Virus record (IMG/VR): IMGVR_UViG_3300027973_000030
Coordinates: 67,295 to 131,294 of that record
Direction: 5' to 3' (one strand)
Source of the DNA: a virus
DNA: 64,000 nucleotides
Position 1 is the first letter of the stretch; the number at the start of each line of letters is the position of its first letter. Position numbers and translations under genes: made by a program. Below, one piece after another: positions 20,261 through 37,233 of this stretch. The notes below the pieces were generated by a model. That model was not told where the DNA came from. It did not search any database and saw nothing but the letters and a program-made list of their open reading frames with translations.

Positions 20261-20320
20261 GTTTACATATATAATATACAATAAAATCTTTAAAGTTTAA
20301 AACTAAACCTTAAATGTTTA
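20261..20320 (-). promoter_or_regulatory. Conserved intergenic element, copy A (candidate late promoter/operator)
   Basis: Minus strand TAAAC-ATTTAAG-GTTTA-GTTTT-AAAC-TTTAA-AGATTTT-ATT-GTATATTATATATGTA; same architecture as 39371-39428. Confidence 0.55.
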
Positions 20321-22372
20321 CTCATTGTAAGGGTTAGGGTAGCCAAATGGGTATGCACTTTGAGCTGTTGGAGCCATATACTGAGCATTAATAGCTGCAG
20401 CATTATTTGCATTCCTACGAGATCCAAAAGCATTAGGAAATTTTCTTTCCATTAACATATTAATTGTACCAGAATCTAATGATTTATCTGTTTTCAAACG
20501 AGCAGCATAGTTTTCCATTTCTTGTAATGTAGCAGTATCAGTTAGACCTGCCTGACCAGTAACCATATTCATCCAACCATTTTTATCTTTCCACTTAATA
20601 TACTTTCCTTGATTACTATCTTCTAAAGAGTAATAAGGATTAGTTTGATTAAGTACAGTTTGTTTACCAGCATTTTCATACTCGTTCATATCATACATAT
20701 CTCTATTTCTAAGATCCATTCTCATAGCATTACGATAAGCTTTGTCTTCTTGCTGACCGTTGTATACTAACTTATCTGCAGCATCAGCTCTATATGCCAT
20801 TACCTTATTCATAATATCTGTTTGTAAAGGACTAAACTGATTAGCTACTCCTACACTCATATTCTGATATTTACCTTGAGTATTACCAACTTGTTCAGCT
20901 CCTTGAGCATTTAAAGCATTGACTCTAGCAGAAAACTGTTGAGGATCCATTTGCTGCATGTAAGCAGCCATCATACTACGTTGTGATGCACCTTCAGCCA
21001 ACTCTCTGTTAGGATCATAGAACGTAGGTTCTGGTATCATAGCATTAAGAGGAGCGGCATACGGTGTATAACGTTTAGAAGGAACCATAAACTGTTTACC
21101 AAAGAACGGTCTTCTTCCACCTGGTGTTTCATCACCCCCACCTCCACCAGTTCCACCACCAGTAGGTATTTCATCATAAGTTATTTCAGCAGGAGGAGTT
21201 TCCCATGATCTAATACACTTAGTAGGATCATTAGGATCTGGAGTATAATAATTCTTTTCTCCGTTAGGTCCATCTGGACAAGTTTTAGTCTCAGGTGTTC
21301 CAGGTACTACATTTCCAGGAGCAGCCGGTGTATACTTTGGCATTTTACCATGAAGCATATCCCACAATCCTTTTTCTTTTTCTGGATCTGTAGCATCTTT
21401 AAAACCTTGCTTATTTAAGAAAGTATTGTAACAACCAGGTCTAGCTTTCATATCTGCTAGTGTATACTTAAGATTACCACAAGGTCCTCCACCTGTAGGA
21501 CCACCTCTAGGAATATTATATCCTGGAGTTAATGATCCAGGTTTACCACCTGTAGTACTACCTGCTTTACCAGGAGTTATAATAATATCTTTACTATCTT
21601 TACCTGACGTACCAGGTTTTCTCCAAATATTTGTATCACCTACTTTTTTATAACCTTCTTTTTCATATTTAGCAATCTCTTCCTTCTTAACTTTTTTAGG
21701 ACTAGTAGTACCGCCACCTTGCATATAGTCTCCACCATCTTGATAGAAACCACCCATCTTAGCTAGTTGTTCTCCCATACCTTCAGGTAATATAGACTTA
21801 GCTACATCAGGAATACCTTGAGGAAATCCTTTCATACCTTCTTGAACTAAAGCTAAACCACCTAACTTCTTTTCAAAGTTTTGAATCATCAAAGCTGCAG
21901 TGTTTTTAGACATCTTATCAGCATATGGATCGTCAAGGATTGCTTTATACTTGTTAACATCATATTGTTTAGCTAGTTCAGCAGGTGTGTATTTTTGTTT
22001 AGTCTCTGGAGACTTACCAAATTTACCTAGAACAGCACCACCAATACGTAACTTCTTAGTATCTGAATATATAAATGTACCTTCAGGAACTTTTAATGGT
22101 GTACCACCTTGTGTATGTTTTTTACCACCGATGTTCATATGTTCATTATGACCATCGTTATTAAAGTCTCCATAAGCAGTCTCACCTTTCTCTGCTTCAA
22201 TGTTAGCTTCATCTCTATCAACTGGTTGTAGAGTTGTGGATACTGAATCATATGGATTATTATTCATATCAGAGTAAACATTTCTCTGACCTAAATCTAA
22301 ACCATAATTACTTTGACCTCCATAAGCCATAGACTCTGGAGCACTTTTAATTCTTACTTTATATGTTTTCAT
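20318..22372 (-). CDS. Putative cargo protein with EAEKGE...HTQGG domain and Gly/Pro-rich linker
   Basis: 684 aa. ANIEAEKGETAY...GGKKHTQGGTP resembles a motif I recall from crAss-like virion proteins. Contains MAYGG, YQDGG and MQGGG motifs. Confidence 0.6.
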   Translation of the reverse strand: MKTYKVRIKSAPESMAYGGQSNYGLDLGQRNVYSDMNNNPYDSVSTTLQPVDRDEANIEAEKGETAYGDFNNDGHNEHMNIGGKKHTQGGTPLKVPEGTFIYSDTKKLRIGGAVLGKFGKSPETKQKYTPAELAKQYDVNKYKAILDDPYADKMSKNTAALMIQNFEKKLGGLALVQEGMKGFPQGIPDVAKSILPEGMGEQLAKMGGFYQDGGDYMQGGGTTSPKKVKKEEIAKYEKEGYKKVGDTNIWRKPGTSGKDSKDIIITPGKAGSTTGGKPGSLTPGYNIPRGGPTGGGPCGNLKYTLADMKARPGCYNTFLNKQGFKDATDPEKEKGLWDMLHGKMPKYTPAAPGNVVPGTPETKTCPDGPNGEKNYYTPDPNDPTKCIRSWETPPAEITYDEIPTGGGTGGGGGDETPGGRRPFFGKQFMVPSKRYTPYAAPLNAMIPEPTFYDPNRELAEGASQRSMMAAYMQQMDPQQFSARVNALNAQGAEQVGNTQGKYQNMSVGVANQFSPLQTDIMNKVMAYRADAADKLVYNGQQEDKAYRNAMRMDLRNRDMYDMNEYENAGKQTVLNQTNPYYSLEDSNQGKYIKWKDKNGWMNMVTGQAGLTDTATLQEMENYAARLKTDKSLDSGTINMLMERKFPNAFGSRRNANNAAAINAQYMAPTAQSAYPFGYPNPYNE

Positions 22373-22393
22373 ATTCTTATAGATATTACAAAT

Positions 22394-24232
22394 TTATAGA
22401 AATTCTACCTCACCACCTGAAGCTAGTATATGTTTTATTTCATCTTCAGTTAATTCATATACTCCGTCAGGTTCATATGATTTAGAATTAATAGACCCAC
22501 CTTCAGCAAAAAGATTCATATCTTTTATTTTAGTATAAGCTTTTTTACCTTCCCACCTAGCAAATTCTTTAAAAAGCTTATCTTTTTCTGCAGGAGATAG
22601 ATCACTTAACCTCTTATCTCCTCCCATATTTTTTACTATATCAGATGTAGAAGCATTAGGTGTATTACGATTACCACTCACCCATTGATTTCTAGCTTCA
22701 GATATAGTTAGACCTGAATAGTTAGGACCAAATAATAAATCTTTACCAGCTTGAATTCCTGTATTAAGATCTGGGAACCTACCTACATTTCCACCACTAT
22801 CTTTAGCACCTTTAGTAGCTCCATATTTAGAAGTAAAATCTCCGTAATGAATGTTTAATGGATTGTTATGTGATAAAGCAACTTCATCACTATTGTCTGA
22901 ACCTCTATTAAAGCTTACATGAACATGATCAGTATGAGGATTATCTCCATTATATGGTCTCCAAGAATCAGATACAGATGGATTCCATATCTGCTTATTC
23001 CAGATAATATATTTAACGTTCTTATCTTGAGCTTCTTTAATAAGCTTTTGAGCTATCTGAGTTCCTTGATCAACACCTAAGATACCAATATCTAAAGCAT
23101 CACCAGTGTTATGATCACTTACCTTTTTTTGGTGAGCTTTATCTCCCCATATACCATAGTTCTTAACTCCTTGAAACTGAGAAGAAATCTCTTGCCAAGT
23201 TTGTTCAGCTATAGGATTAGCTCCACTACTTGCTGCTACTGGAGCAGAAGATTCATAAGCTTCACCTGTACTAACTGGATTAGTCAATGCTGCAGACAAC
23301 TGAGTTTCTTCTATAGGCATAGTTAATGCATCAGGAATAACACCCCCACCATACTGAGCCATACGTGGTAAGAACTGACCTGTATACATTCCTTTATTTA
23401 CAACATACTCATCAGGTCTAAACTCACCAAATCTACTACCACTAACTACATAGTCTCCACGATTACCTGACATTTCACTAGTAACTTCAGGAAATAATGA
23501 GTCTGTAGATGTTTGACGTCTCATATACTTATCAAAATCTTTCTTCTTTTTATATCCGTTAACTAACTGTGTACCAAGGTTTCCCCATGATACAAGTTGG
23601 TCCATACCTTCAAAAGCTTTTTCTACAGGTTGTCCTATATTTTTATTATACCAACCAGCTGCTTGTGCAAGTTTACCAGGACCTTTAGCTTGTGCAGCTG
23701 CTGCAGTTTGTGGTGGTTGATAATTTTCTCCAGCAGGATCTGTATCAAAACCTTCATCATCCCACTCACTATGCCATTTTCTAGCAGGTTGTGGTGTAGT
23801 TATAGGTGCAGCTGGTTGAGCTGTACCCATTGGTTGAACTGCTGCAGGTAAAATATTATTAGATTGGCTAAATGGATTAATACTAGCAGCTTGCCCAGAA
23901 GCTGATAAAGGTTTAAAACTTAAACTAGGAGCTTTAGGAGCTAATGATCTAAGAAGATTTACTCTATTATAATTAGGTGTTGTAAAGTTAGGCATTACAG
24001 ACTTAGGTGTAGTCATACTAGTATTAAATGTATTAGTATTAAACTGTCCTTTAGAATCTAAAGCTTGTTTAAGTAAAGCAATACCACCAGGACTATTAGG
24101 ATCTATTTGCATACCATTGTATTGTACTGCACCATTAGACATACTTGTAGGCATACCAAACTGACTAGCTGGTAAACCATTAGTTCCAAATTGAGCTTTT
24201 GGCATGCTCCTACCTGTAATACGTATTTTCAT
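22394..24232 (-). CDS. Modular virion protein with M15/LAS-like Zn peptidase and lysozyme-like (NNPxNI) muramidase domains
   Basis: 612 aa. SDHNTGDALDIG...YIIWNKQIW...HTDHVHVSF (H-x6-D and HxH) at ~22905-23210; HNNPLNIHYG...GRFPDLNTGIQAG at ~22520-22870. Confidence 0.75.
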   Translation of the reverse strand: MKIRITGRSMPKAQFGTNGLPASQFGMPTSMSNGAVQYNGMQIDPNSPGGIALLKQALDSKGQFNTNTFNTSMTTPKSVMPNFTTPNYNRVNLLRSLAPKAPSLSFKPLSASGQAASINPFSQSNNILPAAVQPMGTAQPAAPITTPQPARKWHSEWDDEGFDTDPAGENYQPPQTAAAAQAKGPGKLAQAAGWYNKNIGQPVEKAFEGMDQLVSWGNLGTQLVNGYKKKKDFDKYMRRQTSTDSLFPEVTSEMSGNRGDYVVSGSRFGEFRPDEYVVNKGMYTGQFLPRMAQYGGGVIPDALTMPIEETQLSAALTNPVSTGEAYESSAPVAASSGANPIAEQTWQEISSQFQGVKNYGIWGDKAHQKKVSDHNTGDALDIGILGVDQGTQIAQKLIKEAQDKNVKYIIWNKQIWNPSVSDSWRPYNGDNPHTDHVHVSFNRGSDNSDEVALSHNNPLNIHYGDFTSKYGATKGAKDSGGNVGRFPDLNTGIQAGKDLLFGPNYSGLTISEARNQWVSGNRNTPNASTSDIVKNMGGDKRLSDLSPAEKDKLFKEFARWEGKKAYTKIKDMNLFAEGGSINSKSYEPDGVYELTEDEIKHILASGGEVEFL

Positions 24233-25662
24233 TAGTCAATAATTTCAAAATTATAACCACCTTGTTTTAACATTTGTAATTCTTCTGGCGTAACATCAAG
24301 TACATCACCTTCTACTGGACCACCCATTTGCTTAGCAAAGTTCTTAGCAAAGTTAGCTTTTTTCCTCATAGCAGGACTATACTTTCCTTTAGGAGCGTTA
24401 AGTATAGTAGATGCAGCTTGTTGTACTCCCATGCCCATACGAGTTGCTTGAGCTTTAAATGTACCTTTCTTAGCAGGATCTAGATGTATACCACCATATG
24501 CCATTTCTCCATATTGAGGAATATATGTATCACTATCTGTTATCATAGAACCACCCACTTGATACCACGCATTACCACTAAATGTAGAACCACCATTCTT
24601 TCTTGTAGGAGCAACTGCTAATGACTTTTGCATAGCTTTACTAAACTGCATGTCATCCGCTACCTTTGTCATACGACTAAGATCTGTTTTGCTACTTCCA
24701 GGATGTGGATTAGTCATAATACAAGAAAATGTACCATCTCCATTACTATATTTAGTATAACCTGGAGGACAATCAAAACCACCTGGTCTAGGTATAGAAC
24801 CTGCTGTGTTTGATACAGGGTAACCTGTTACATAATCTTTGTGATAAGCTGAAGGATACTTTTCAGCATCTGCAGCATTTTGTTCAAGTATAGAATTATA
24901 ATCAGGTTGACCACCTTGTTGATAGTTAGCACCTGGCATTTCATTTTCTGGTTCTTGTTGTTCACCATACTGCATATAATCAGCTACAGTATTAAGATAG
25001 TCATCAGCTAATGTAATCTTAGAAGCAACCCAAGGATCAACTTCTGTATCAGCACTATTAATAAACTTTTGTAAACGAGATAACTTATCATGCATAGCAG
25101 CTATTTGACCCATAGCCATACCTGCATTACTTTCACCACCGTCTGCCATCTCACTCATTGGATTATAATGTCCACCATATCCCATATTACTTAAGATCTT
25201 AGCTTGTACATAATCAGGTAGTGCATCAAAACCTGCATTGTTAGTACCACCGTTACCATACACTCCACCATATGCAGCTTCTTGTGCACGAATCTTTGAT
25301 TCTTGTTCTAGCATTTCTTTAGTGGGTTTTTTACCAGAACCTTTATTAGCTCTAATATTATCCCATAAACCACGTTTAGAATAAGAACCATCAGCTCTAC
25401 GTATCATTCCACCATCAACAAACATACCTGTAGTATATCCACCATATGCCATAGCAGCTTGTTCCATATCAGGTTGCTCTTGTTGTTGAGCACTACCTTG
25501 TTGTAAAGTCTGCATCATCTGTTGAATAGCTTGCTGTTGTTGTTCAGCGGGCATCTGTTGTAGCTTCTGCATTAACTGTTTAGGATCAATCTTATTCATC
25601 TGAGCATACTGTTGAATAATCTGCATGATCTGAGCTTGTTGCCCACCTTGTTGAAAGTACAT
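24232..25662 (-). CDS. Modular low-complexity virion protein built from short modules separated by xxGG motifs
   Basis: 476 aa. Q/M-rich N-terminus; modules RRADGSYSKRGLWDNIRA, DPWVASKITLADDYL and IHLDPAKKGTF...RKKANFAKNF; about 13 xxxGG motifs. Confidence 0.7.
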   Translation of the reverse strand: MYFQQGGQQAQIMQIIQQYAQMNKIDPKQLMQKLQQMPAEQQQQAIQQMMQTLQQGSAQQQEQPDMEQAAMAYGGYTTGMFVDGGMIRRADGSYSKRGLWDNIRANKGSGKKPTKEMLEQESKIRAQEAAYGGVYGNGGTNNAGFDALPDYVQAKILSNMGYGGHYNPMSEMADGGESNAGMAMGQIAAMHDKLSRLQKFINSADTEVDPWVASKITLADDYLNTVADYMQYGEQQEPENEMPGANYQQGGQPDYNSILEQNAADAEKYPSAYHKDYVTGYPVSNTAGSIPRPGGFDCPPGYTKYSNGDGTFSCIMTNPHPGSSKTDLSRMTKVADDMQFSKAMQKSLAVAPTRKNGGSTFSGNAWYQVGGSMITDSDTYIPQYGEMAYGGIHLDPAKKGTFKAQATRMGMGVQQAASTILNAPKGKYSPAMRKKANFAKNFAKQMGGPVEGDVLDVTPEELQMLKQGGYNFEIID

Positions 25663-25666
25663 AATG

Positions 25667-28600
25667 TTATTTTTTATAAGTTACTTTTATACTGTGTTTC
25701 TTTTCTAAATATTGTTTACCTAAAGCTACACCACCCATTTGTTTTTTAGGAGTAAAGTTTGGATTCTTAGAATTAAATGGTTGGTAATCATTAGTATTCC
25801 AAATACGACCATACCAAGTATCATTATAATCACTATTAGGTACACCAGGAGCTGGGTTATTTATATTTCTATAATACCAATCTCTTCCTTTATTCATTAG
25901 AACTCTTCTTTGGTTTTCTGGAAGTTTACCTATTGTACCATCATACTCTTGATCAAATGAATATGGTGCATTTTTTCTACCTGCCCACTTACCATGTGCA
26001 TCTAATTTAGATCCATCATTCTCTCTATAGTATTCTTGTAAAGCAAACGCTCTAGGATCTTTAGTTATTTTATTATTAGCTTTATCCCACCCTGCATTAA
26101 ATATAAAGTCCATAGCTTCACCAGCTTCCATAGCACTTGCGTTTGGTAATATTTTTTGTACTTCAGGATATATTTTATCCATAAGTATTGTTTTATACTT
26201 AGGGTCTCTATAATCAGGATTACCATTTGTACCATCTAAAGGTGCACTACCTGAACCTCCTCTTAATACTTCATATTGTAATATTTTATTAGCTTGATGT
26301 CTAACACTATCTGTTTTACTAACTTGTCCTGCCATTTGATATGGTGGTATAGTACCGCCATCTTCCCAAGTCTTTCTAGCAAATGCTCTAAAGAATGGAT
26401 TACCAGCTAAGTTACTTTTATGTCTAGCATAGAAAGCAGCTTTTCTTTTAGGATCATTAGGATGCTGTCCTAATTTAGAATCACCAAAGTATTTAACAGT
26501 TCCATCAGGTCCTGTCACTTTATGTGTCTTACCTTTTCTATCATGACTTCTAGTTACTACATATCCTCCACCTTTCATTTTATTTTTACTAGCAGTAAGT
26601 TTATCATATTCTTTATCAGCTAATATTTGAAACTCTTCTCTCAATTTAGGTTCAATAATAGAATGAGCTTCATACTCTTGAGTACCTGGAGCATAATAGT
26701 TTTTATCATACGCACTTTTCCATGAGTCTGCATTAAATATATCACTTAAACTCATATTCTTTAATGTGTTTAAGTAATCATTACCTATGTGTGATTTAAT
26801 AAATCCTAGGTTACCTTTTTTATTTAATTGTACTTTATGAGCTAGTTCACTAATAAGTGAATCACCACGATAATCACTTTCAGGATTATGTATTTGTAAA
26901 GTGTCACTGAAAGGAGTAACTCTAAGCATAGGTCTATCTTGCTTATCAAGCATCTTTATATCATGACCTTTATATTTAGTATACATCTGTTCTCCTGCAA
27001 GATAAGAAGACATAGGACTATTTACAGGTGACTCACGATCTTGCCAATCTTCAGCTTCTTTCCTCCATCTATCAAAATAAGCTTTAGCTGTAGGGTTTCT
27101 ATGTCCATAAACAGTTACTTCTGGAAGAGTATATCCACCAGTTTGCATCATAGGATATTCATCCACATGCTCAGCTTCACCAAAAGAATAATCTTTACCT
27201 GGATACATCATTTGCTTTTTACCATTAGAACCTATACCTAATACAGGATAGTTAACACCTTGCATAGTAATGTCTGATCCTGGTATACGTGTAACCTCAC
27301 CTGGGTGAGCCCACTGACCCATTGGATCTACCACTGGACCACCTTGTGCATAATATCCTTTTTTCTTAAGTGCCTTTATAATACGATCATAGTCAATCTG
27401 ATTAACATCCGGCTTACCTAATACTTCTTTATCTTTAGGGTTAGCTTTCATATAGTTAGTACGGATCTGCTTATGAGTAATAATACTATTTAAAGGTATC
27501 TTATTCTTCTTAATAATAGGACCAGCGTATTCTACAAATGAGTTAATCTGTTTGTCTGTAAGACGAGTCTTATCAGTATCACCTTGGAATTCTATACCTA
27601 CACCAAAGTCATTTACATTATCTCTACCATTCATCATTGACTTACCAGCATGGAAAGTAACTTGATCTGGACGAGCGTAATTATAACGTGTACCATCAAA
27701 GTCAATCACTACGTGTGAAGACTCACCAGGATTACTAAATTGTTTAGCAACACCTTGCATAGCTTTAGACATTCCTTTACTTACACCTGTAGTATCTGAG
27801 TATCCTGTATGGTGAAGAATAATAGCTTTCTGTTCATTAGTTAATGAGTGCCCCTTTTTAAAAGACTCATCATTCTTAGTCCTAATGTTAGGAGTATTCA
27901 TTGGTACATCTCTAAACTGAGTTTGTGGTGCCGCCTCGTTAGTACCTCTAGTATAATTACCTGGTTTTAAATATAAAAACGCAGAACCACTTGTATTTTC
28001 ACCTTGATAATCTTTAAGTTGTTGAGCTGTAATCTTTTGATTTTTATTTCTAAGACCCATAGCATAACTACCATTATCAAGCGTTATAGCTTCTACATAT
28101 GGATTGTCACCTTTAATTTGTTTAAACGCTCTACGTATATCTTCTGCTGAACCTGATACTAAGAACTGTTCACCTTTAGGAGTTTTAAAAATAACACGTC
28201 CTCCAGTAATCTGACCAAATGATTTAGTGTCTCTATTCCCTTTAGGTATTAATAGATTTAAACTACCTTCAGTCATCTTACCATCATCACCCATTACTTT
28301 TACAACAGGACTAAGATGTTTATTAGAAGCTTTAGCTTTTGAGTCTTTAAGTTTCATAGAGCCGTCAGCTTCATCTATAAAGTCAACAATCTTATTACCA
28401 AATGTTTTAGTAATTCTATAATCAGTATTTACAAAATCTGCCTTATTACCAACTTTGATTTTACCAGCTGCATCTACACCAATATAAGTTGAGTTGTTAG
28501 CATCTTTAGCATTTTTAGCAAAGTAGTCTTTAGCTTTCTCAAATGATTGGAATGTAGTAATATCTGCTGCTTCTGTATCAATATCTTTATATTCATCTCT

Positions 28601-31600
28601 ATTACGTGTATCCCAATTAGTTTGATTAAGATCGATCATAGCTGGAATAACATAACGATTTTTATCTATGTTTATAGTATCTCCTGTAGATATAGCTGGT
28701 CTACCTACAGTAGGAATATTAAACTTAGTTTTAGTTTCTTGTAGATTATCATTATTTTTAAGATCTTGTCTTTTAAAATAATTCTCTACAATTTTTCCAT
28801 TATCAGGTGAAACAAATTTAGCTAAATTAACTAAACCCTTTTTAGCACTTGCTGTTACATCTTTAGTAATAGCTATTGCACCTTCTGGTGAAAGACCTGA
28901 TGGTGCCATAGTCATCTTAGAAAAATCTAAAGGTGACCTGTTAACTGCATCTTCAAAATCATTATACAAGTCTTCATACCAAGTTGTTTTTTTAATATCA
29001 GCTGCACTTTGTTTTTTAGTTTCTACAACTGGTTTATTAGCTGGAATAACAACTGGTATATTTTCTTTAGTATATGGTCCTAATTTATTTGGATTCTGTC
29101 TAAGGAAAGCAAATGGATCAGCAGGATTATAATTACCAAATGTAGTGTTACTATTAAAAGGTACAGGTGTATTTACTGGTGGTGCAACAACTGGAGGATT
29201 TTGTACTCCAGAACTCATAAAAGAATATGGATCAAACTTTGGAATATTAATCTGTGGTGTTGGAGCAGTAGCAGCAACTGGTTGTACAACAGGAGGTGGT
29301 GTATTAACAGCAGCTTTTGCTGGAGTTAATGGCATTGGTATAACCATCTTAGGTTTTAAAGAAAACTTATCATATACCACTTTAGGTTGTAATGACAAAT
29401 TAACTTTAGTCTTAGGTACTTCCTGATCCATAAATGCAGGTCTGTACAAAGGTTGTGTATTACGCACAGGTGCAGCTTGACGCTGTTCCATTTGCATCAT
29501 CTTCTCTACAGCTATAGGAGCCTGAGTTTGTTCATACTCTTTTTCTAATAAGTCGTCATTCTCACGAAGCTTATTAAGAAGTTCTGTATTCTTAGCAGCA
29601 GAATAGTTATAGTCTTCTACACCATACTTTTCAGCAAGACCTTTTCTAAATGCTTTATTACCTGAGTATCCTTTAGTAGCTAAATAGTCTACAATACTTG
29701 GACCTTTATATTCTGTACCGTCTTGAGCAAATACTTGAAACATATTATTCTCACCACCATACTTTTGTTCTTTAGCACCTATTGCAGCTGCTCCAACTCC
29801 TACAGCTCCAGGTACAACATAAGATTTATTTAATGCATCTAATAATCTTTTACGTGCCGGATATGATTTATCCTTTCCATATTTAGTAGCAATTTCATTT
29901 ACATAATCAGCTACATCAGAGTAACGTCTTGCATAACTATTTACATTATCATCTTGAGAAATTTTCTTTAAAAAGTCATGAAGATTTTTTGAACTTATTT
30001 GCTGTCCTCTTTTAATTCCTTCTGACTCTTCAATATGATCTAATAATTCTAAATTTCTAACTTGTTGTTCTGATGGTCTATTAAGATATTGAATATTATC
30101 AGCTTTTTTACCAATACCAGCAATATTTCTTTGAAACCAATTTCCTAGTTTAATTGTTGGATATCCTTTGTAATTAGGTTCAGTATTAGAAACCTGAGAA
30201 AATGCATGTTTTATTTCATGATCTAATGTAGCTAAGCCTTCATCTCTAGGTACATTATCACCTACTACTACTTTTGGATTTATAGATTGTTTTCCAAATA
30301 TTTGTTTACCAATAACATTTGGCGTATATTCTTTTGAATAATAACCTGCTGCACTATTACCAATTGGTGCTGTTATAACATCTGTTCTTTTAAATCTTTC
30401 ACTAATTTTAGCTACATCTGCTTTTACTTGTTCTGCAGTTTCTCCACTAGCAGCCATCCTTCTTTTTAAATACTCATCACTATTTATCCAATCATTTTCT
30501 CTTTTAGCCATTTTATCAATCTCAAATTTAGCTATTTGATTTTTAGGTTCCAGTTCATTTCTCATCACATTACCTTCTGCTATAGATAAGTTTGGTCTAG
30601 TTAAATCTATTGGTAATCCACTAACATTTCCACTTAGATCTGGAACTTTACTAAATTCTGGAGTTGGTTGTTTAACTTGTTTATATCCTTGTAACCAATC
30701 TTTCTGTAATATTCTACCTTGATCTACAGGAATATCTTCACGAGCTATTTGACTCCAATCAGATCTATATCTTTTACCCCAACTACTAGCATCTCTAGGA
30801 ACTTCAGCAATAAAACCATCACCGTAATTATCAGCTACATTAAACTTAGGACTATAATAAGCTTTACTAAATTGTTTAGCTACATTAAAGTTTCCATCCA
30901 TTATAGGTTGAACATCTTGTTTAGCTCTAAAAACACCAGATGCTAAAGCATCTTCCATTCCTTCTTTACCTAACCCTCTATACATTACATTATCAGGTAG
31001 ATTATTCTGATAAGAAAAAGGATTAACTTTGTATGCATTAGATAGTATCCCAGATTCTTTAGATGCATTTACAGCAGCTCTTACTCCCGGTGCTGCTTCT
31101 GCAGCAAAAGGCATCATATCAAGAGCAGTAACTCCTGTTTCTAGAGCTGCATTTCCTACATTACCCCATGAAGGATTTTGGTAAGCTTTTTTTATAGAAC
31201 TAGCAACATTAGGAATGTTTTTAGCACCTTCGTATGCAAAACCAGCATTAATAAAATTAGTTCCAGTAAGTCCAGCTACACCCGCAATAGGTGCATTAAG
31301 ACCTGCTAATACTGACGGTAAAGCTGATGCACCTGCTGCACCTGCAAGAATGATAGGTACTGTTTTAACAAACTGATTAGCTGCTATAGCACCAGCTGCT
31401 GAGTTATTTCCGCTAGGAGTAAATGATCCAAACGTTTGAGCAAGTTCAGAGTTAGCCATAGCTTCTTGTCTCTGTGCTTCTAAACGTCTTTGTCTATCTG
31501 CCTCTCTACTTGCAGGAGTACTTCTATCTTGTGAGATATAAGTTCTATTATTAAATTCTCTTTCTAAAAGTTCTTTTTGTTCTCTTTCCTTTTTGTTTTT

Positions 31601-31813
31601 AAGAAACTGTTGTTGTTGTTCATACTCTTTTACATAAGCAGGTTGTCTAGGTATATTATCATTACTACTTAAATTAACATTAGGCATGTTCTTTAAGTCT
31701 TGCTTATATTTAGATAACCAATCTGTACCACCTTTTTGCATCTTCTGCAATCCAGGAAGTACTCTGTGATCTACATCACCCGCATCAATAATATGTTGTA
31801 ATAGCTTATTCAT
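25667..31813 (-). CDS. Multidomain polyvalent virion protein: ART-like, zincin, PG-binding, N-acetylmuramoyl-L-alanine amidase, second zincin-like and GH108-like lysozyme domains
   Basis: 2048 aa. Amidase_2 motifs IILHHTG/SSHVVI/FHAG/GIEF/ITHK (~27360-27830); HEIKH 30206-30220; SIVDYL..RK.LA..Y..A.KN..LL (~29564-29710); ELAH..Q...EYEAH; AMDFIFNAG...RDWYYRNI...WYGRI (~25790-26310). Confidence 0.8.
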   Translation of the reverse strand: MNKLLQHIIDAGDVDHRVLPGLQKMQKGGTDWLSKYKQDLKNMPNVNLSSNDNIPRQPAYVKEYEQQQQFLKNKKEREQKELLEREFNNRTYISQDRSTPASREADRQRRLEAQRQEAMANSELAQTFGSFTPSGNNSAAGAIAANQFVKTVPIILAGAAGASALPSVLAGLNAPIAGVAGLTGTNFINAGFAYEGAKNIPNVASSIKKAYQNPSWGNVGNAALETGVTALDMMPFAAEAAPGVRAAVNASKESGILSNAYKVNPFSYQNNLPDNVMYRGLGKEGMEDALASGVFRAKQDVQPIMDGNFNVAKQFSKAYYSPKFNVADNYGDGFIAEVPRDASSWGKRYRSDWSQIAREDIPVDQGRILQKDWLQGYKQVKQPTPEFSKVPDLSGNVSGLPIDLTRPNLSIAEGNVMRNELEPKNQIAKFEIDKMAKRENDWINSDEYLKRRMAASGETAEQVKADVAKISERFKRTDVITAPIGNSAAGYYSKEYTPNVIGKQIFGKQSINPKVVVGDNVPRDEGLATLDHEIKHAFSQVSNTEPNYKGYPTIKLGNWFQRNIAGIGKKADNIQYLNRPSEQQVRNLELLDHIEESEGIKRGQQISSKNLHDFLKKISQDDNVNSYARRYSDVADYVNEIATKYGKDKSYPARKRLLDALNKSYVVPGAVGVGAAAIGAKEQKYGGENNMFQVFAQDGTEYKGPSIVDYLATKGYSGNKAFRKGLAEKYGVEDYNYSAAKNTELLNKLRENDDLLEKEYEQTQAPIAVEKMMQMEQRQAAPVRNTQPLYRPAFMDQEVPKTKVNLSLQPKVVYDKFSLKPKMVIPMPLTPAKAAVNTPPPVVQPVAATAPTPQINIPKFDPYSFMSSGVQNPPVVAPPVNTPVPFNSNTTFGNYNPADPFAFLRQNPNKLGPYTKENIPVVIPANKPVVETKKQSAADIKKTTWYEDLYNDFEDAVNRSPLDFSKMTMAPSGLSPEGAIAITKDVTASAKKGLVNLAKFVSPDNGKIVENYFKRQDLKNNDNLQETKTKFNIPTVGRPAISTGDTINIDKNRYVIPAMIDLNQTNWDTRNRDEYKDIDTEAADITTFQSFEKAKDYFAKNAKDANNSTYIGVDAAGKIKVGNKADFVNTDYRITKTFGNKIVDFIDEADGSMKLKDSKAKASNKHLSPVVKVMGDDGKMTEGSLNLLIPKGNRDTKSFGQITGGRVIFKTPKGEQFLVSGSAEDIRRAFKQIKGDNPYVEAITLDNGSYAMGLRNKNQKITAQQLKDYQGENTSGSAFLYLKPGNYTRGTNEAAPQTQFRDVPMNTPNIRTKNDESFKKGHSLTNEQKAIILHHTGYSDTTGVSKGMSKAMQGVAKQFSNPGESSHVVIDFDGTRYNYARPDQVTFHAGKSMMNGRDNVNDFGVGIEFQGDTDKTRLTDKQINSFVEYAGPIIKKNKIPLNSIITHKQIRTNYMKANPKDKEVLGKPDVNQIDYDRIIKALKKKGYYAQGGPVVDPMGQWAHPGEVTRIPGSDITMQGVNYPVLGIGSNGKKQMMYPGKDYSFGEAEHVDEYPMMQTGGYTLPEVTVYGHRNPTAKAYFDRWRKEAEDWQDRESPVNSPMSSYLAGEQMYTKYKGHDIKMLDKQDRPMLRVTPFSDTLQIHNPESDYRGDSLISELAHKVQLNKKGNLGFIKSHIGNDYLNTLKNMSLSDIFNADSWKSAYDKNYYAPGTQEYEAHSIIEPKLREEFQILADKEYDKLTASKNKMKGGGYVVTRSHDRKGKTHKVTGPDGTVKYFGDSKLGQHPNDPKRKAAFYARHKSNLAGNPFFRAFARKTWEDGGTIPPYQMAGQVSKTDSVRHQANKILQYEVLRGGSGSAPLDGTNGNPDYRDPKYKTILMDKIYPEVQKILPNASAMEAGEAMDFIFNAGWDKANNKITKDPRAFALQEYYRENDGSKLDAHGKWAGRKNAPYSFDQEYDGTIGKLPENQRRVLMNKGRDWYYRNINNPAPGVPNSDYNDTWYGRIWNTNDYQPFNSKNPNFTPKKQMGGVALGKQYLEKKHSIKVTYKK

Positions 31814-31820
31814 AGTCTCT

Positions 31821-34800
31821 CTACCTAAAAGATGGTTGTATTTTTTGGTTAGATATTTTAAAGATCATCTTTAGATCATTACTTGTAAGTTTTCTAAGTA
31901 ACACTCTATTTACATTGTGTCTAAACTTTTTATGTTCTAAAGCTGACTTCTGGTAGTTTACATAAGCTGGGTTAATTGAATACTCGTAACCATTAGCTTT
32001 AGTGTTAAACATAGGTACATTAGTAGTAGTAGCAAACTCACCACGGTTCTTAGTAATATCCCAGAACTGATTGAATCTAAATTTATTTTCTTCTTTAGCA
32101 TAATTAATCTTTATAGAAGCTGTACCTACTTGTGGGTAAGACAACATTTGTATAGGGTTTGTTTTACTCTTCAAGCTCATCTCTAATAAACCAGATATTT
32201 GTTCTGAGTTATAGATGACAGCTTGATCAAAGTTCTCATCTAAGATATGAAACTTATCAGCACAACCGTTATGATATTTATAAGTTTCTAACATGTATTC
32301 TACATTTCTAACAGTAGTAACTGTCTGTCCTGTAGATGATACAAACTCCACCTCAAAAGGATAATCTTTGTTATAGAAGTTAGCAAACTTATCACAACGT
32401 ACATTATGTTTCCATATAGTATTAGCGTTAACGCTTAAAAAATGTGACTTACTAGGAATTAAGAAAGTAGGAATCCAGTCATGGAATGATAACCACATTT
32501 TGTTTTTAGGATCATAACTTACAGTCCAAGAAGCTTCTTCAAATGCATCACTCTTAAATGTATAATAAGTTTTAACACCGCCTACAATTCTATAGAATCC
32601 TTTAGAGTCATATACTAAGTCAGCAAACTTAGGTTTGTAATCTTTCTTAGTGATATATATAATCTCATGAGTATTATCATAAATCATCTGTACTCCTACA
32701 CCGGCAACCTGATTATCATATAACGGGTAGTCTGGGAATGCTTTAAGTAACTCACTAGGTAAATACTTAGCAAACCACCACTTCATACCATTACGAGATA
32801 TCTCATCAAGCTGTCCAGCATATTGGAATATCTTACCTTGATTCTGACTAACCCAGAACACACCATGTGTAGTTCCTATAGAACAAAATCTACCCTGATT
32901 AGAACCATATTCATATGAGTCATCTGAGTTAACTAAAGCTTGCATTGGTTGACTAAATAATCCACCATCACCAATAGTTATCTTTGTACCAGCATCTGTC
33001 TGTAATTGATCCACACCCATAAACTGAACAGGACTTTGGTACGCCATCATAAACAAAGCACCATTTTTATTAACTGGTTTAATACTAGCAACTCTAGATT
33101 GAAAATCTTTATAGTTGTTAGCTAAGAATAGTCTCCAGTTATCTTTACTCACTTCTTCTTGTTGCGGTAAAGAATAGATAACTCTATTTGGTCTATACGT
33201 AAAGCATGAAGAATAAGTTGTAGGATCATAACTTCTAGGAAGTAAGTTACCCCATGATATAAAGTTAGAATACAGTTTAGATATGCTTAATGAATAGTCA
33301 TATTTGTAATAATTACCACTCTTAATAATATCACTTCTAAACATTAAACTTAAGTCAGTAAACTCATTAGCATCGTAGTGACGCTTAGATGTTTCATCTT
33401 CCCAATCACGGAAAGCTAAGTTAATCTCAGACTCTACAAAGAACTCTCTAACACCTGAGTTAAACAAATACATGTAACCCTGATGAATATAAAAGAACCT
33501 TGTAACTGACTTATCTAAGTGATGATGTTCTTTAGCTGAACTCTCTATAAGTTTATATTCAGCTTCTGCAGTGTTCATCCAATATCTAGGATACGGAACG
33601 TTTATATAGTTTCTATAATCATAAGCAGTTTCATCTGGAAAGTCTATCATCCAATCATTAAAGAATGGCATAGTATTTTTCTCAGTAAACTTATTTATAT
33701 ATACATCACCGCCAAATATAATATCAGATGTAAACTTAGTATTAGGTTGACCATTAGTTAAACCTACACAAGTAGTAATAGGTAATTGTTTAATTGATTC
33801 TAACTGCCCATATTGAGAAGCTAAAGGAATCTTGATAGATCCATAATGACAAGATATATTACGTTGAAATCCTTTATTAGGTTCTACTGCTGCATTTGCT
33901 AGTGGTATTCTGGCAGCATCACTTATTAACACTCTACTATTATCTAAATTAGTTGGATCTGCAAAAGTTTTACCATCAGGTAGTTTTATAATTACAAAGT
34001 TGTTTCTATATAGATTATTGATTCTATATCCATTATTAAAACCTTGTACGTTTCCTTTTACATATAAACTATCATCTATCTTTCTTCTTCTGTTACCTAC
34101 TTTAGATTGACTAAAGTTATTAAAGAAACCATGAGAGTTATATTGTAAAGCATATTGACGTTTAGGTATTAAACCATAAACCAACACTTGTAATTGAGCT
34201 GCAGTAGTTTCAGAATGAATATATTTAACTACAGCCATTTGAGCTTCATACCCAACTACATTCAAACCATAAGCAATAGTATCAACTATATCAGATACAA
34301 GATCACCTACACCAAAAATACTTCCAACTGCTCCTAAAACAGATCCTAATATTGTTTTCTTTTTTTCAGGTTTAACAGGAACAAGGTTAAGTTTAACAGG
34401 CATTTTAGTAGTACCTGTTAACTCAACACTGCCAACAGGAAAGTTATCATTAGAAAGACTATTAAAAATTCTAATTATTTGTAAAGTTTTAGTAACTATC
34501 TCTACGTTTTTACCAAGGAATTTATTTTTAGGATGTCTCCATGGTTGTTCAAATACCCCTTCAGATCTACCATACACTTCACCATACAATTTAATTTCTT
34601 GTACAGATAAGAATGGTTGAGTAAAAGTAGTATCAGGACTATGAAAAGAAAATACATCTTTTCTATAACCAGTTAATGGATCAGATTTACGGTTATCAAA
34701 TGAACCATTATTAATATGATCTACATTAGAAGTTAAATAATAGTCAGCAGATAAATCATTATAAGGATAGTTTTGATATAATCCTTGTATACCTGTAGTA

Positions 34801-36881
34801 CTTTCTGGTATTGTATACTCACGCATATTATTAAATATACCTGTAGCTACGATTGTCTTATGACCTTCTCTAGTTCCTCTAAGTATTTCATACCCAACTA
34901 CAGAAGCAATTGGTTTACCATCTATACCTAAAGGATGAGTGATATTTTCAAACTGTACACCTAACACTACAATATTTTGTCCATCTGTGTTATAGTGATT
35001 AACTATTGGATCTACAGTAGCATCAGGAAACTTATGGTGTCTAATAGGTTGACCGCACAATGTTCCCCATATTTGAGGTTTATTGTCAGGATATAACTCT
35101 GTAGATTCCCAATACCCCATCTGCCCACTTGCAATAATTTTACCACCATCTGTTAATATACTTGTTGTTAAACTGTCTACTGTTGCTGTGTTGTCTACTT
35201 GCCAACGCTGTGGTATTAAACCATCTGCTATTTCATATACATCATCTCCACCAGCTAATGTTCTATCAGAAGCTATAGGAGCTCTTCCTGGAATATGATA
35301 AGAATCAGAACGTTCACCTGTTGTGTATACCCATCTAATAAAGAATGAATATTGTTCATCTCTCATAAAAGAAGGATTGTTTCCTCCTTTAGGATAATAT
35401 GTTGCTGGATACTGTACAGCTACCCATTTTGATTTAATAGCATTAGCTTGTTGTTGATAATTAAATCTGAACTTACTATATGTACCTACACGTAATAGAT
35501 AATTATTTACAGAATACATTGCATCTGACTTCTCAATTGGTTCTGTTCTAAGAACAATCATTGTAAGAGGAACCGTAATTAATTCAGGTCCTACAGAACT
35601 AATGTAAATAACCCCTTGGCTAGTAGAATAATAACCAAGACTTTTAGCTACAGCTTGTTGATTGATATTAGATATTACCACCAATTCAAACTCATCAAAG
35701 CTTTTATCAATATTAGTAATAGTTACTTCTAAAGAACCTGATAAGTTCTGATGACTAAACAAAGCTTGCACTTCACTAAGTCCAAAATAATCAGTAATCT
35801 TAACTTGATCTATAGTGTATGCTAATGCAACTTGATATGAACCATTAGCTAACGTACCCGAACCTTTACCTTTTTGTAAAGACATGCAAGGTTGTTTAAC
35901 TAATGGAGCAAGTCTAATCTTTTCACAATCTAATCTATCTGAACATACTGGAGTCTTACAACCTATTCCAGAACTAGCTGGTGTTAAACTTGTAATGTCA
36001 TTTATTTTATATGGAGTAGTAACAGTACTTTGAGAAAATCCTGCACACGGTATAGTATTACCATTATAATCTTTTTTTGTACCAATAGTAAGTAGGGCAT
36101 TAAGAACCCCTCCAGGAAATTGTTGCTCGTACGCTTGTTGATCTGTTAAACATAACTCATATGTTGTACGACCAGCTGTAGGAATAGCAATACTAATAAC
36201 ATGTATATAGGATTGTTCTGCAATACAACTTGAAGGAACAATCTGCATTGCAGCAGGTTTATCAAAAGATAAAAACTCAAATACTTCTCCATCAACTAAA
36301 TATTTAGTTTGGGAAGTGTAGTTAATGTCTATATAGGTAAGTTTAGTAGAAGCTGTTTTAGCTGGACATGTTGCACCAATTAATCTATACTTAAACGGTT
36401 GTTTAGTAACAGAAGGTTGTGTACATACATATGGTACGTCATCAATATTTAAAACTCTAGTTGGGTTTAAACCATCATCCCAATAAAGCATTTTCTCACA
36501 ATCAAACTTTTTACGGAATACTCCAGTAATAAGATTTGAACGTTTAAAGTTTAAACATGGATCATTTATAACTTTAGTATAAGAGCAAGCAGACTCATCA
36601 AATACACCAATTTCAGAGTTAAGATCGTCTGTAGTAAATACAGCCCATTGGTCATCTAACATATGTATTAGACCAATCAATGTATATGGTAGAGTTACAC
36701 AATACAAGTTAGCTGGTTCATTACCTATGACACCAACCTGACCATCATGTGAATTATTAACTGCATTACGTGCATGAGTGTACAATCCCTCACCTACGAA
36801 AGTCTCGTTGTAATCTTTAACCATACCTTTACTAAAGGTATTAGTGACAGCTCCCGGATTTTGTGATTCTTGTTCAGCCAT
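31821..36881 (-). CDS. crAss-like tail muzzle / tail stabilization protein
   Basis: 1686 aa. N-terminal TNTFSKGMVKD...ARNAV, FMRDEQYSFFIRWV...HIPGR, ISRNGMKWWF and WTVSYDP..WLSFHDWIP. Lies downstream of the ring genes. Confidence 0.8.
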   Translation of the reverse strand: MAEQESQNPGAVTNTFSKGMVKDYNETFVGEGLYTHARNAVNNSHDGQVGVIGNEPANLYCVTLPYTLIGLIHMLDDQWAVFTTDDLNSEIGVFDESACSYTKVINDPCLNFKRSNLITGVFRKKFDCEKMLYWDDGLNPTRVLNIDDVPYVCTQPSVTKQPFKYRLIGATCPAKTASTKLTYIDINYTSQTKYLVDGEVFEFLSFDKPAAMQIVPSSCIAEQSYIHVISIAIPTAGRTTYELCLTDQQAYEQQFPGGVLNALLTIGTKKDYNGNTIPCAGFSQSTVTTPYKINDITSLTPASSGIGCKTPVCSDRLDCEKIRLAPLVKQPCMSLQKGKGSGTLANGSYQVALAYTIDQVKITDYFGLSEVQALFSHQNLSGSLEVTITNIDKSFDEFELVVISNINQQAVAKSLGYYSTSQGVIYISSVGPELITVPLTMIVLRTEPIEKSDAMYSVNNYLLRVGTYSKFRFNYQQQANAIKSKWVAVQYPATYYPKGGNNPSFMRDEQYSFFIRWVYTTGERSDSYHIPGRAPIASDRTLAGGDDVYEIADGLIPQRWQVDNTATVDSLTTSILTDGGKIIASGQMGYWESTELYPDNKPQIWGTLCGQPIRHHKFPDATVDPIVNHYNTDGQNIVVLGVQFENITHPLGIDGKPIASVVGYEILRGTREGHKTIVATGIFNNMREYTIPESTTGIQGLYQNYPYNDLSADYYLTSNVDHINNGSFDNRKSDPLTGYRKDVFSFHSPDTTFTQPFLSVQEIKLYGEVYGRSEGVFEQPWRHPKNKFLGKNVEIVTKTLQIIRIFNSLSNDNFPVGSVELTGTTKMPVKLNLVPVKPEKKKTILGSVLGAVGSIFGVGDLVSDIVDTIAYGLNVVGYEAQMAVVKYIHSETTAAQLQVLVYGLIPKRQYALQYNSHGFFNNFSQSKVGNRRRKIDDSLYVKGNVQGFNNGYRINNLYRNNFVIIKLPDGKTFADPTNLDNSRVLISDAARIPLANAAVEPNKGFQRNISCHYGSIKIPLASQYGQLESIKQLPITTCVGLTNGQPNTKFTSDIIFGGDVYINKFTEKNTMPFFNDWMIDFPDETAYDYRNYINVPYPRYWMNTAEAEYKLIESSAKEHHHLDKSVTRFFYIHQGYMYLFNSGVREFFVESEINLAFRDWEDETSKRHYDANEFTDLSLMFRSDIIKSGNYYKYDYSLSISKLYSNFISWGNLLPRSYDPTTYSSCFTYRPNRVIYSLPQQEEVSKDNWRLFLANNYKDFQSRVASIKPVNKNGALFMMAYQSPVQFMGVDQLQTDAGTKITIGDGGLFSQPMQALVNSDDSYEYGSNQGRFCSIGTTHGVFWVSQNQGKIFQYAGQLDEISRNGMKWWFAKYLPSELLKAFPDYPLYDNQVAGVGVQMIYDNTHEIIYITKKDYKPKFADLVYDSKGFYRIVGGVKTYYTFKSDAFEEASWTVSYDPKNKMWLSFHDWIPTFLIPSKSHFLSVNANTIWKHNVRCDKFANFYNKDYPFEVEFVSSTGQTVTTVRNVEYMLETYKYHNGCADKFHILDENFDQAVIYNSEQISGLLEMSLKSKTNPIQMLSYPQVGTASIKINYAKEENKFRFNQFWDITKNRGEFATTTNVPMFNTKANGYEYSINPAYVNYQKSALEHKKFRHNVNRVLLRKLTSNDLKMIFKISNQKIQPSFR

Positions 36882-37233
36882 GTTTTATATCAAGCTTCTT
36901 CTTTTCTAAAAATTTATATGTCACAGCGGTTAAGTGTCCTGCCAACCAAGCTTGTGCTTCTTCATCTACCACTCCTCTATCTTCTGTCACTCTAACAGCA
37001 GCATGAAAGATTTCATGAGCTATTGTATTATGCGTTAGATACTTTACTCCTAATAGTAAATAGTAAACATCTGTATCAGGCATAACTAAAGCACCTTCTG
37101 CTTCATCTCCAAAAGTTTCTTTTATCTTACATCTTTTGTATATTCTATCTGCCTCAACAGAAACACTTTCAACTATACTTATAATAATCTTGCAACTATA
37201 AGTAGGTAATTTTATGGTTGTACTTACACTCAT
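36874..37233 (-). CDS. Small zincin-like metallopeptidase
   Basis: 119 aa; TIAHEIFHAA...DEEAQAWL gives HExxH plus a downstream Glu ligand. Confidence 0.7.
   Translation of the reverse strand: MSVSTTIKLPTYSCKIIISIVESVSVEADRIYKRCKIKETFGDEAEGALVMPDTDVYYLLLGVKYLTHNTIAHEIFHAAVRVTEDRGVVDEEAQAWLAGHLTAVTYKFLEKKKLDIKHG

Follow-up and report, generated by a model that had tools for sequence, protein, structure and literature searches.

The cargo block and its recurring Gly-Gly motif

The window analyzed here, a stretch of 64,000 nucleotides, is the right half of a CheckV-complete single-contig record of 131,294 base pairs (IMG/VR IMGVR_UViG_3300027973_000030) that derives from an uncultured lake crAss-like phage. 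Phages of this kind rank with the most abundant viruses that infect Bacteroidota of the gut and of aquatic habitats. The minus strand carries all of the large genes of the window, and four consecutive genes among them encode proteins that are strings of modules punctuated by a short motif ending in a Gly-Gly pair. These four genes, whose products total 3820 residues, are referred to here as the cargo block, and the motif is referred to as the seam. The seam is specific in position and restricted to the cargo block, it lies at the borders of modules, and it is the point at which modules have been exchanged and genes fused or split. Residues of the motif are numbered backwards (-1, -2, -3) and forwards (+1, +2) from the Gly pair, and a run of Gly residues that includes the pair is called a GG run. 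In the order of transcription, the four genes of the block are the following.

25667-31813, minus strand: cargo protein 1, 2048 residues, a string of modules; nine GG runs, seven with Met, Tyr, Phe or Trp at -3 to -1
24232-25662, minus strand: cargo protein 2, 476 residues, "beads on a string"; 14 GG runs, 11 with Met, Tyr, Phe or Trp at -3 to -1
22394-24232, minus strand: cargo protein 3, 612 residues; six GG runs, three with the motif; C-terminal tail GG-E-V-E-F-L
20318-22372, minus strand: cargo protein 4, 684 residues; 14 GG runs, five with the motif; conserved N-terminal domain at residues ~50-190

The open reading frames (ORFs) of the 476- and 612-residue proteins overlap by one base (24232), and those of the 2048- and 476-residue proteins are separated by a gap of 4 bases (25662-25667). 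This tight packing of the cargo genes suggests translational coupling.

An Amidase_2 domain was identified at residues 1329-1456 of the 2048-residue protein (E 4e-17), which also contains an HExxH motif at residue 532. Two hydrolases had been proposed for the 612-residue protein in a preliminary description of this DNA. One of them was retained as a weak LAS/M15-type peptidoglycan peptidase-like domain at residues 366-442 (PF06904 at E 0.0047, below the cut-off; phrog_32486 at E 2e-9), and no support was obtained for the other. Sequence searches of the PDB with the 684-residue protein, its N-terminal profile, the 612-residue protein and the 1686-residue product of the gene next to the block returned only one match, a weak one of a LysM entry to the M15-like domain. 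The 476-residue protein is predicted to be mainly disordered with short helices. Residues 275-420 of the 684-residue protein (21121-21550, minus strand) form a low-complexity region rich in Gly, Pro and Thr, with up to five Gly in a run, that is distinct from the seam.

The preliminary description had reported about 27 copies of the motif in the four proteins. Its coordinates and motif strings were correct, the bases given being those at which the second Gly codon ends, and the pattern [M/Y/F/K/W]-x-x-G-G yields 6 + 3 + 10 + 7 = 26 copies. The seven sites of the 2048-residue protein were all present at the bases reported (MQKGG at 31727, QKYGG at 29753, YAQGG at 27338, MQTGG at 27134, MKGGG at 26564, WEDGG at 26354 and KQMGG at 25730). 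Enrichment over the rest of the proteome, which had been suggested as a check, was also observed: Met, Tyr, Phe or Trp occurs at -3 to -1 in 26 of the 43 GG runs of the four proteins, compared with 64 of 197 in the genome's remaining ORFs of 100 residues or more (Fisher p = 9e-4). Motif density per 100 residues is 0.68 in the cargo proteins and 0.18 elsewhere. Significance for each protein was estimated from 2000 shuffles of its own sequence. The excess was strong for the 476-residue protein (11 motifs against 2.2 expected, a number reached in 0 of 2000 shuffles) and moderate for the 2048-residue protein (7 against 3.4, reached in 89 of 2000). It was not significant for either the 684-residue protein (5 against 3.0; 336 of 2000) or the 612-residue protein (3 against 1.6; 426 of 2000) taken alone.

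The same bias was found in related phages, whose loci carry the labels L001-L025 (L019 is the Microcystis phage Mel-JY01). For nine of 17 related IMG/VR loci, cargo-block proteins were compared with flanking proteins, and the motif was present in 210 of 357 GG runs of the former and 30 of 93 of the latter (p = 7e-6), at densities of 0.76 and 0.11 per 100 residues, respectively. The motif is thus a family trait that marks the block between the muzzle-like and virion RNA-polymerase genes. An exhaustive HMMER search with the 476-residue protein retrieved 2474 clusters at E <= 1e-3, with modules shared at varied positions. On this count the motif is present in a minimum of 2474 protein clusters. 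Counts for these remote relatives were taken from the best 150 of the 2474 clusters, a set of 128,147 residues in proteins of 136-2293 residues. Within this set the motif occurred at 1624 of the 2260 GG runs, whereas 50 shuffles of each protein gave 440±22. The median was 11 motifs per protein, and at least three were present in 149 of the 150 proteins. Megablast of the block against GenBank phages gave no match, and tblastn with the 476-residue protein gave just five records, each of them partial.

Residue preferences were derived from 2013 distinct contexts. Position -3 is enriched in Met (6.0x), Tyr (4.0x), Trp (3.8x), His (2.4x) and Phe (2.1x) and depleted in Leu (0.5x), Ile (0.3x) and Val (0.4x). 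At -2 the preferred residues are Gln, Ala and Glu, with aromatic residues and Met depleted there (Met 0.7x, Leu 0.2x, Ile 0.3x), and at -1 they are Tyr, His, Met, Asp and Glu. The Gly run has exactly two members in 2084 of 2260 cases and is followed by Glu, Tyr, Ile or Met at +1 and by Ile, Met, Thr, Val or Pro at +2. A separate, minor class consists of the C-x-x-C-G-G of Zn-ribbon modules. The seam is thus specific both in position and in chemistry, and it is not a by-product of composition. Spacing between consecutive seams is multimodal, with 6-14 residues in 450 of 1474 intervals and further peaks at 20-29 and 60-79 residues; gaps of fewer than 15 residues make up 457 of the 1474 (about 30%).

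Module borders and module exchange

Seams were compared with the ends of aligned blocks in 41 hand-chosen cargo-block proteins, a set from which the near-duplicate loci L002, L004, L006 and L011 and parts of L009, L014 and L016 had been removed. Clusters of BLAST block ends fell at most three residues from GG in 159 of 485 cases, where 62 were expected. The resulting ratio of 2.55 for GG compares with 0.74-1.49 for 12 control patterns, which included other Gly dipeptides as well as Trp (1.30). On the basis of these controls, the idea that conserved residues of whatever kind would serve as BLAST block ends was rejected. Gain and loss of modules therefore maps to GG, as the preliminary description had suggested it might, and the gaps of two further alignments agree with this result. 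The first, A1, aligns eight orthologues of the 476-residue protein. The orthologues differ in whether they possess three whole blocks, every gap starts and stops at a seam, and the GG pairs are invariant although mean column identity is 55%. In the second alignment, A3, which has nine rows, whole-module indels and swaps start and stop at GG.

Two modules of the 2048-residue protein illustrate the exchange.

27134-27352, minus strand: module at residues 1493-1558, framed by YAQGG (27338-27352) and MQTGG (27134-27148)
26354-26578, minus strand: module at residues 1751-1818, framed by MKGGG (26564-26578) and WEDGG (26354-26368)

The first was found in seven of the nine A3 rows with flanks that are unrelated on both sides, and the second is located instead in the 476-like protein of L001, L008, L010 and L012. 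More generally, the blocks that the 2048-residue protein shares with cargo proteins of relatives begin or end within a few residues of GG28, 686, 1491, 1559, 1748 and 1819, and the block C-terminal to GG2027 is common to L001, L003 and L005. Structures predicted with AlphaFold2 gave a consistent picture, at low confidence. In the model of residues 1290-2048 (mean predicted local distance difference test score, pLDDT, 46), two confident modules were obtained at model residues ~225-266 and 462-529, with block pLDDT values of 70-84, and their low-confidence borders hold GG1491, GG1559, GGG1748 and GG1819. These module edges, together with the BLAST block edges, bear out the earlier placement of the sites of this protein at domain boundaries. 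A Foldseek search of this multi-domain, low-confidence model against the PDB returned nothing at E <= 0.001. The model of the 476-residue protein (mean pLDDT 38) consists of short helices between coil, with all 14 GG runs outside helices and strands and five of the 14 at most two residues past a helix end.

The number of genes among which the modules are distributed also varies. In L021-L025 one cargo protein of up to 2845 residues holds all the modules in fused form, whereas two cargo proteins are present in L015-L017. The 476- and 612-residue proteins share an acidic tail after G-G (DUF7210-like, weak), and the next genes open with a head, M-K-(I/V)-R-(I/V)-T, that is basic. The borders concerned are given below.

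22372-22417 and 24232-24261: tail/head borders in the window
L010:11086-14049 and L012:11305-15216: the corresponding fused genes

In L010 and L012 the 612- and 684-like genes are fused with the tail and head peptides kept adjacent, and these gene borders are therefore points of fission. The two peptides may pair once the genes are split. Thus the "plug-and-play" part of the preliminary description held up: the proteins are built by concatenation of effector and structural modules, and among relatives these modules have been gained, lost, relocated, fused or split at GG seams.

Seams also coincide with the limits of named domain families. DUF5872, a Pfam family described from giant viruses, is split at a seam, its N- and C-terminal halves lying in different cargo proteins of L012, and the end of DUF5754 coincides exactly with a seam.

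L012:5775-9857, L012:9866-11302 and L015:7724-11818: loci with DUF5872 and DUF5754

In Mel-JY01, a 190-kb cyanophage, a stand-alone protein of 187 residues without any G-G (L019:5797-6360) contains a homologue of the helical module at residues ~175-235 of the 476-residue protein. Because this homologue stands alone and lacks GG, the seam belongs to the cargo context and not to the fold of the module. The N-terminal 28 residues of the 2048-residue protein (31727-31813), which end in the motif, are 96% identical in L003 and L005, and the next ~650 residues are unrelated. This peptide, encoded just downstream of the muzzle gene, could be a docking or targeting peptide.

Genomic setting and relation to known cargo proteins

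Transcription of the region runs from the tail-fibre genes through the gene for the 1686-residue protein to those for the 2048-, 476-, 612- and 684-residue proteins, followed by those for the 1033-, 4512- and 1719-residue proteins. The neighbors of the cargo block that bear on its assignment are as follows.

36874-37233, minus strand: ORF of 119 residues just upstream of the muzzle-like gene, with HExxH and no Pfam match at E <= 1
31821-36881, minus strand: muzzle-like tail protein, 1686 residues, upstream border of the cargo block
3590-17128, minus strand: virion RNA-polymerase-associated protein, 4512 residues, matched in BLAST by crAss001 gp47 and gp50
1-3561, minus strand: N-terminal part of the 1719-residue crAss001 gp49-like (catalytic virion RNA polymerase) protein, downstream border of the virion-protein block

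The 1686-residue protein matches PHROG "virion structural protein" families (phrog_37948, E 7.5e-66), and its profile is collinear in hhalign with the first 390 residues of gp44, the muzzle protein of crAss001 (E 1.6e-4, probability 50%, 349 columns). On the other side of the block, crAss001 gp49 matches the 1719-residue protein in BLAST (E 6e-26), and the 4512-residue protein is a natural fusion of gp47-like and gp50-like parts, since both crAss001 proteins match it. The HExxH motif at residue 1752 of the 4512-residue protein falls within the gp47-like match and marks a candidate zincin-like protease. With a muzzle-like gene on one side and virion RNA-polymerase genes on the other, the four genes occupy the position of the crAss001 cargo genes gp45 (C1) and gp46 (C2), and this order of muzzle-like gene, cargo block and polymerase genes recurs in relatives L001-L017 and L021-L025. 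From synteny and content, the latter being Amidase_2 (E 4e-17) and the weak LAS/M15-type peptidase-like domain, the products of the four genes are most probably carried inside the particle and delivered into the host on ejection.

In crAss001, gp45 and gp46 were detected in virions and partly resolved in capsid and tail, according to the main text of Bayfield et al. 2023 (PMC10172136). The same text proposes for gp45 an extended chain threaded through the portal and partial unfolding on ejection; its two ordered parts lie ~420 Å apart across the portal, and residues 425-552 form a compact ordered domain on it. The seam motif was found in crAss001 gp45 as well (9 of 20 GG runs, of A-Y-G-G and A-F-G-G types) and in phi14:2 g069 and g070 (6 of 9 GG runs). 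The block described here, at four proteins and 3820 residues, has many more modules and seams than the crAss001 cargo, and it shows no significant sequence match to it (none in BLAST; hhalign probability 0.2-0.7%). The N-terminal domain of the 684-residue protein is possibly the counterpart of the C1 portal-bound domain, a lead for which the match is not significant. Neither the 684-residue protein nor its L015 counterpart matched Pfam PF25725 (crAss_CARG1) at E <= 1, only short collinear similarities being found, whereas crAss001 gp45 (E 2.3e-66) and phi14:2 g070 (E 2.8e-10) did match it.

A second point of comparison is provided by polyvalent proteins, described in the main text of Iyer, Burroughs, Anand, de Souza and Aravind 2017 (PMC5512222) as large phage proteins with many unrelated domains and extensive mosaicism that are thought to be packaged and injected, and for which processing by embedded zincin-like peptidases was proposed. 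Like these, the cargo proteins combine unrelated domains in one mosaic polypeptide, Amidase_2 standing beside modules that are shared piecemeal. Pfam MPTase-PolyVal and LPD23 gave no match in this genome, although HExxH motifs are present. Viral clusters that resemble residues 385-685 of the 2048-residue protein in a language-model comparison include one with LPD23, at a score of 0.86 that is below threshold and serves as a lead only. Modular injected polyvalent proteins and crassvirus cargo are both already known. The words "cleav", "proteol" and "protease" are absent from the main text of PMC10172136, which mentions neither motif nor cleavage, and "linker", "glycine" and "crAss" are absent from that of PMC5512222, which does not describe a seam between modules. 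A wider literature search, which included the main texts of these crAss001 cargo and polyvalent-protein papers, likewise found no description of the motif, and a search for the commonest seam 5-mer had no phage paper among the matches listed. Recognition of the seam allows giant "hypothetical" proteins to be divided into functional units and shows how effector repertoires are reshuffled, and it makes testable the question of whether ejected proteins reach the host as a continuous thread or already separated into pieces.

Function of the seam

The reading favored here, which we rate as an evenly balanced proposition, is that the seam is an uncut, flexible joint of modular ejection proteins. Each cargo protein would be a chain of small autonomous modules (~20-170 residues), among them peptidoglycan hydrolases, Zn-ribbons, DUF5872 halves and helical mini-domains, and each module would close with a short seam of the form [M/Y/W/F]-[A/Q/E/K]-x-G-G. 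Met or an aromatic residue would cap the helix or strand with which the module ends, and the invariant Gly-Gly would break secondary structure and so provide a flexible joint. Left uncut, the seam would keep the beads structurally independent, and a chain of independent beads could be stored in extended form and pass through portal and tail one bead at a time, much as the crAss001 authors infer for gp45. A module framed by seams could also be inserted, deleted, moved or split without harm to its neighbors. Independence of the beads would in this way make seams tolerated sites of module insertion, module loss and gene fission. What we infer is that the proteins are packaged, that the seam serves as a hinge and in threading, and that it is not cleaved; cleavage of some seams only, or once the proteins have been ejected, may also be compatible with the data.

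Several observations weigh against a simple hinge. It does not account for the preference at -3 for Met, Tyr and Trp over Leu, Ile and Val, for the invariance of GG in orthologues that are ~55% identical, or for the 450 intervals of 6-14 residues, in which no module separates one seam from the next. The GG-less homologue in Mel-JY01 ties the seam to the cargo context, and HExxH motifs are present in the 2048-, 4512- and 1719-residue proteins. Further points count against this reading: packaging of the four proteins is argued from synteny, the 684-residue protein gave no crAss_CARG1 match at E <= 1, and both AlphaFold2 models are of low confidence. The choice of residues, the GG invariance, the tandem seams and the Mel-JY01 homologue hint at recognition by something, and because the Met/Tyr/Trp choice and the tandem seams are left unexplained by a hinge, sizeable weight falls on a code that is read, either as a handle or as a protease site. 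We consider it rather improbable that the seam is such a code, read by a packaged zincin-like protease or, as a universal handle, by machinery of the portal, tail or cargo zone. If so, it would represent a general "plug-in" standard for adding new injected effectors in crAss-like phages.

In one form of recognition, itself rather unlikely, seams would act as multivalent short linear motifs that bind the portal, tail barrel, scaffold or each other, serving as handles for loading or as stickers that yield a cohesive, extended mass of cargo. A capsid-targeting tag, an alternative named in the preliminary description, may still hold. The selection of Met, Tyr, Trp and His but not Leu, Ile or Val at -3, with tandem spacers of 6-14 residues, resembles sticker-and-spacer sequences, and the seam is an addition to modules that other phages encode without it. 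In crAss001 gp45 an A-F-G-G copy marks the start of the ordered portal-bound domain, and the start of tail-barrel helix 214-245 lies four residues past an A-Y-G-G copy. However, [MYFW]-x-x-G-G occurs in only 2 of 14 GG runs of the 4512-residue protein and in 0 of 6 and 1 of 3 in the other virion RNA-polymerase-associated proteins, although these are packaged in crAss001. Since these proteins nearly lack it, the seam is no universal packaging tag.

Release of modules by cleavage at GG had been the central proposal of the preliminary description. Seams would then be a processing code, cut in the capsid or after ejection by a phage protease, for example a packaged zincin-like domain, or by a host protease. 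This is an unlikely reading, and as proposed it found no support: no matching protease family was found, the register differs, seams occur in tandem, and GG lies inside the ordered gp45 domain. The di-Gly proteases (adenovirus C5, Ulp/SUMO C48, bacteriocin C39 and S273R of African swine fever virus) cut at a G-G pair that follows a hydrophobic residue. Strict G-G and the specific residue set at -3 would suit such an enzyme. Nevertheless, in comparison with the consensus sites of these proteases, the hydrophobic residue here is at -3 from the first Gly and not at -2. The register, Phi-x-x-G-G with depletion of Leu, Ile and Val, sets the seam apart from adenain and C39 sites and from the (M/I/L)-x-G-G cited in the preliminary description. 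Unlike the C39 double-glycine leader, the motifs are internal, numerous and often tandem (median 11 per protein), with no single N-terminal leader. A six-frame hidden Markov model search of the complete genome at E <= 1, as had been suggested, returned 0 matches to Peptidase C39 (PF03412), C5 (PF00770) and C48 (PF02902) and 0 to each of PF04586, PF03420, PF00574 and PF01343 (S78, S77, ClpP and S49), a divergent protease being possible; MPTase-PolyVal (PF18818) was likewise unmatched. The head and inner-body proteins of phiKZ and the internal proteins of T4 are packaged and ejected, and the T4 gp21-type prohead protease cuts them at short recurring sites ending in Glu; the genome described here differs in that the S77 and S78 families were not found.

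Zincin-like processing of packaged polyproteins is proposed in the texts of the Drobysheva preprint (10.1101/2020.03.07.982082) and of Iyer et al. (PMC5512222). In accord with it, HExxH motifs occur in the 2048-residue (residue 532), 4512-residue (residue 1752) and 1719-residue (residue 158) proteins, in the 119-residue ORF and in some cargo proteins of relatives. None of the four regions has a Pfam peptidase match at E <= 1, however, and an HExxH module is present in just 5 of 37 cargo proteins of relatives, several relatives without it still carrying the seam. Geometry also argues against cutting. Some seams are 2-7 residues from N-termini and 457 of the 1474 gaps are shorter than 15 residues, so that cleavage would yield useless peptides, many of 6-14 residues; cleavage of the 476-residue protein at its first seam would leave an N-terminal peptide of seven residues. 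The pair itself is not always kept, the N-terminal seam being G-S in L003 and L005 and the second Gly being variable in 612-like proteins. In crAss001 gp45 the ordered portal-bound domain (residues 425-552) contains GG427, 434 and 447 intact. Virion bands of crAss001 at ~150, 270 and >300 kDa, reported in the text of PMC6235969, fit intact large cargo. The four gp45 peptide ranges quoted in the text of PMC10172136 cover no GG run.

A recombination joint at the level of DNA had been named as another alternative. In it the Gly-Gly codons (GGTGG) would drive shuffling as microhomology or as a signal, and the peptide would have no role. In A1, direct repeats of the seam border the indels, and GGT encodes the first Gly at 23 of the window's 26 motif sites. 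Across the genome and nine loci, however, motif sites and other GG runs do not differ in codon use (GGT for the first Gly at 77% of 328 motif sites against 73% of 349 others, p = 0.38), and conservation at -3 to -1 is one of amino acids, several of which are tolerated. A DNA-level signal was rejected on these grounds and is very improbable. Finally, an artefact of Gly-, Met- and Tyr-rich sequence, to which the individually non-significant 684- and 612-residue proteins might point, has a negligible chance of being correct and is refuted for the family as a whole by the 1624 motifs observed against 440±22 in composition-keeping shuffles, by the asymmetry between -3 and -2 and by conservation in orthologues.

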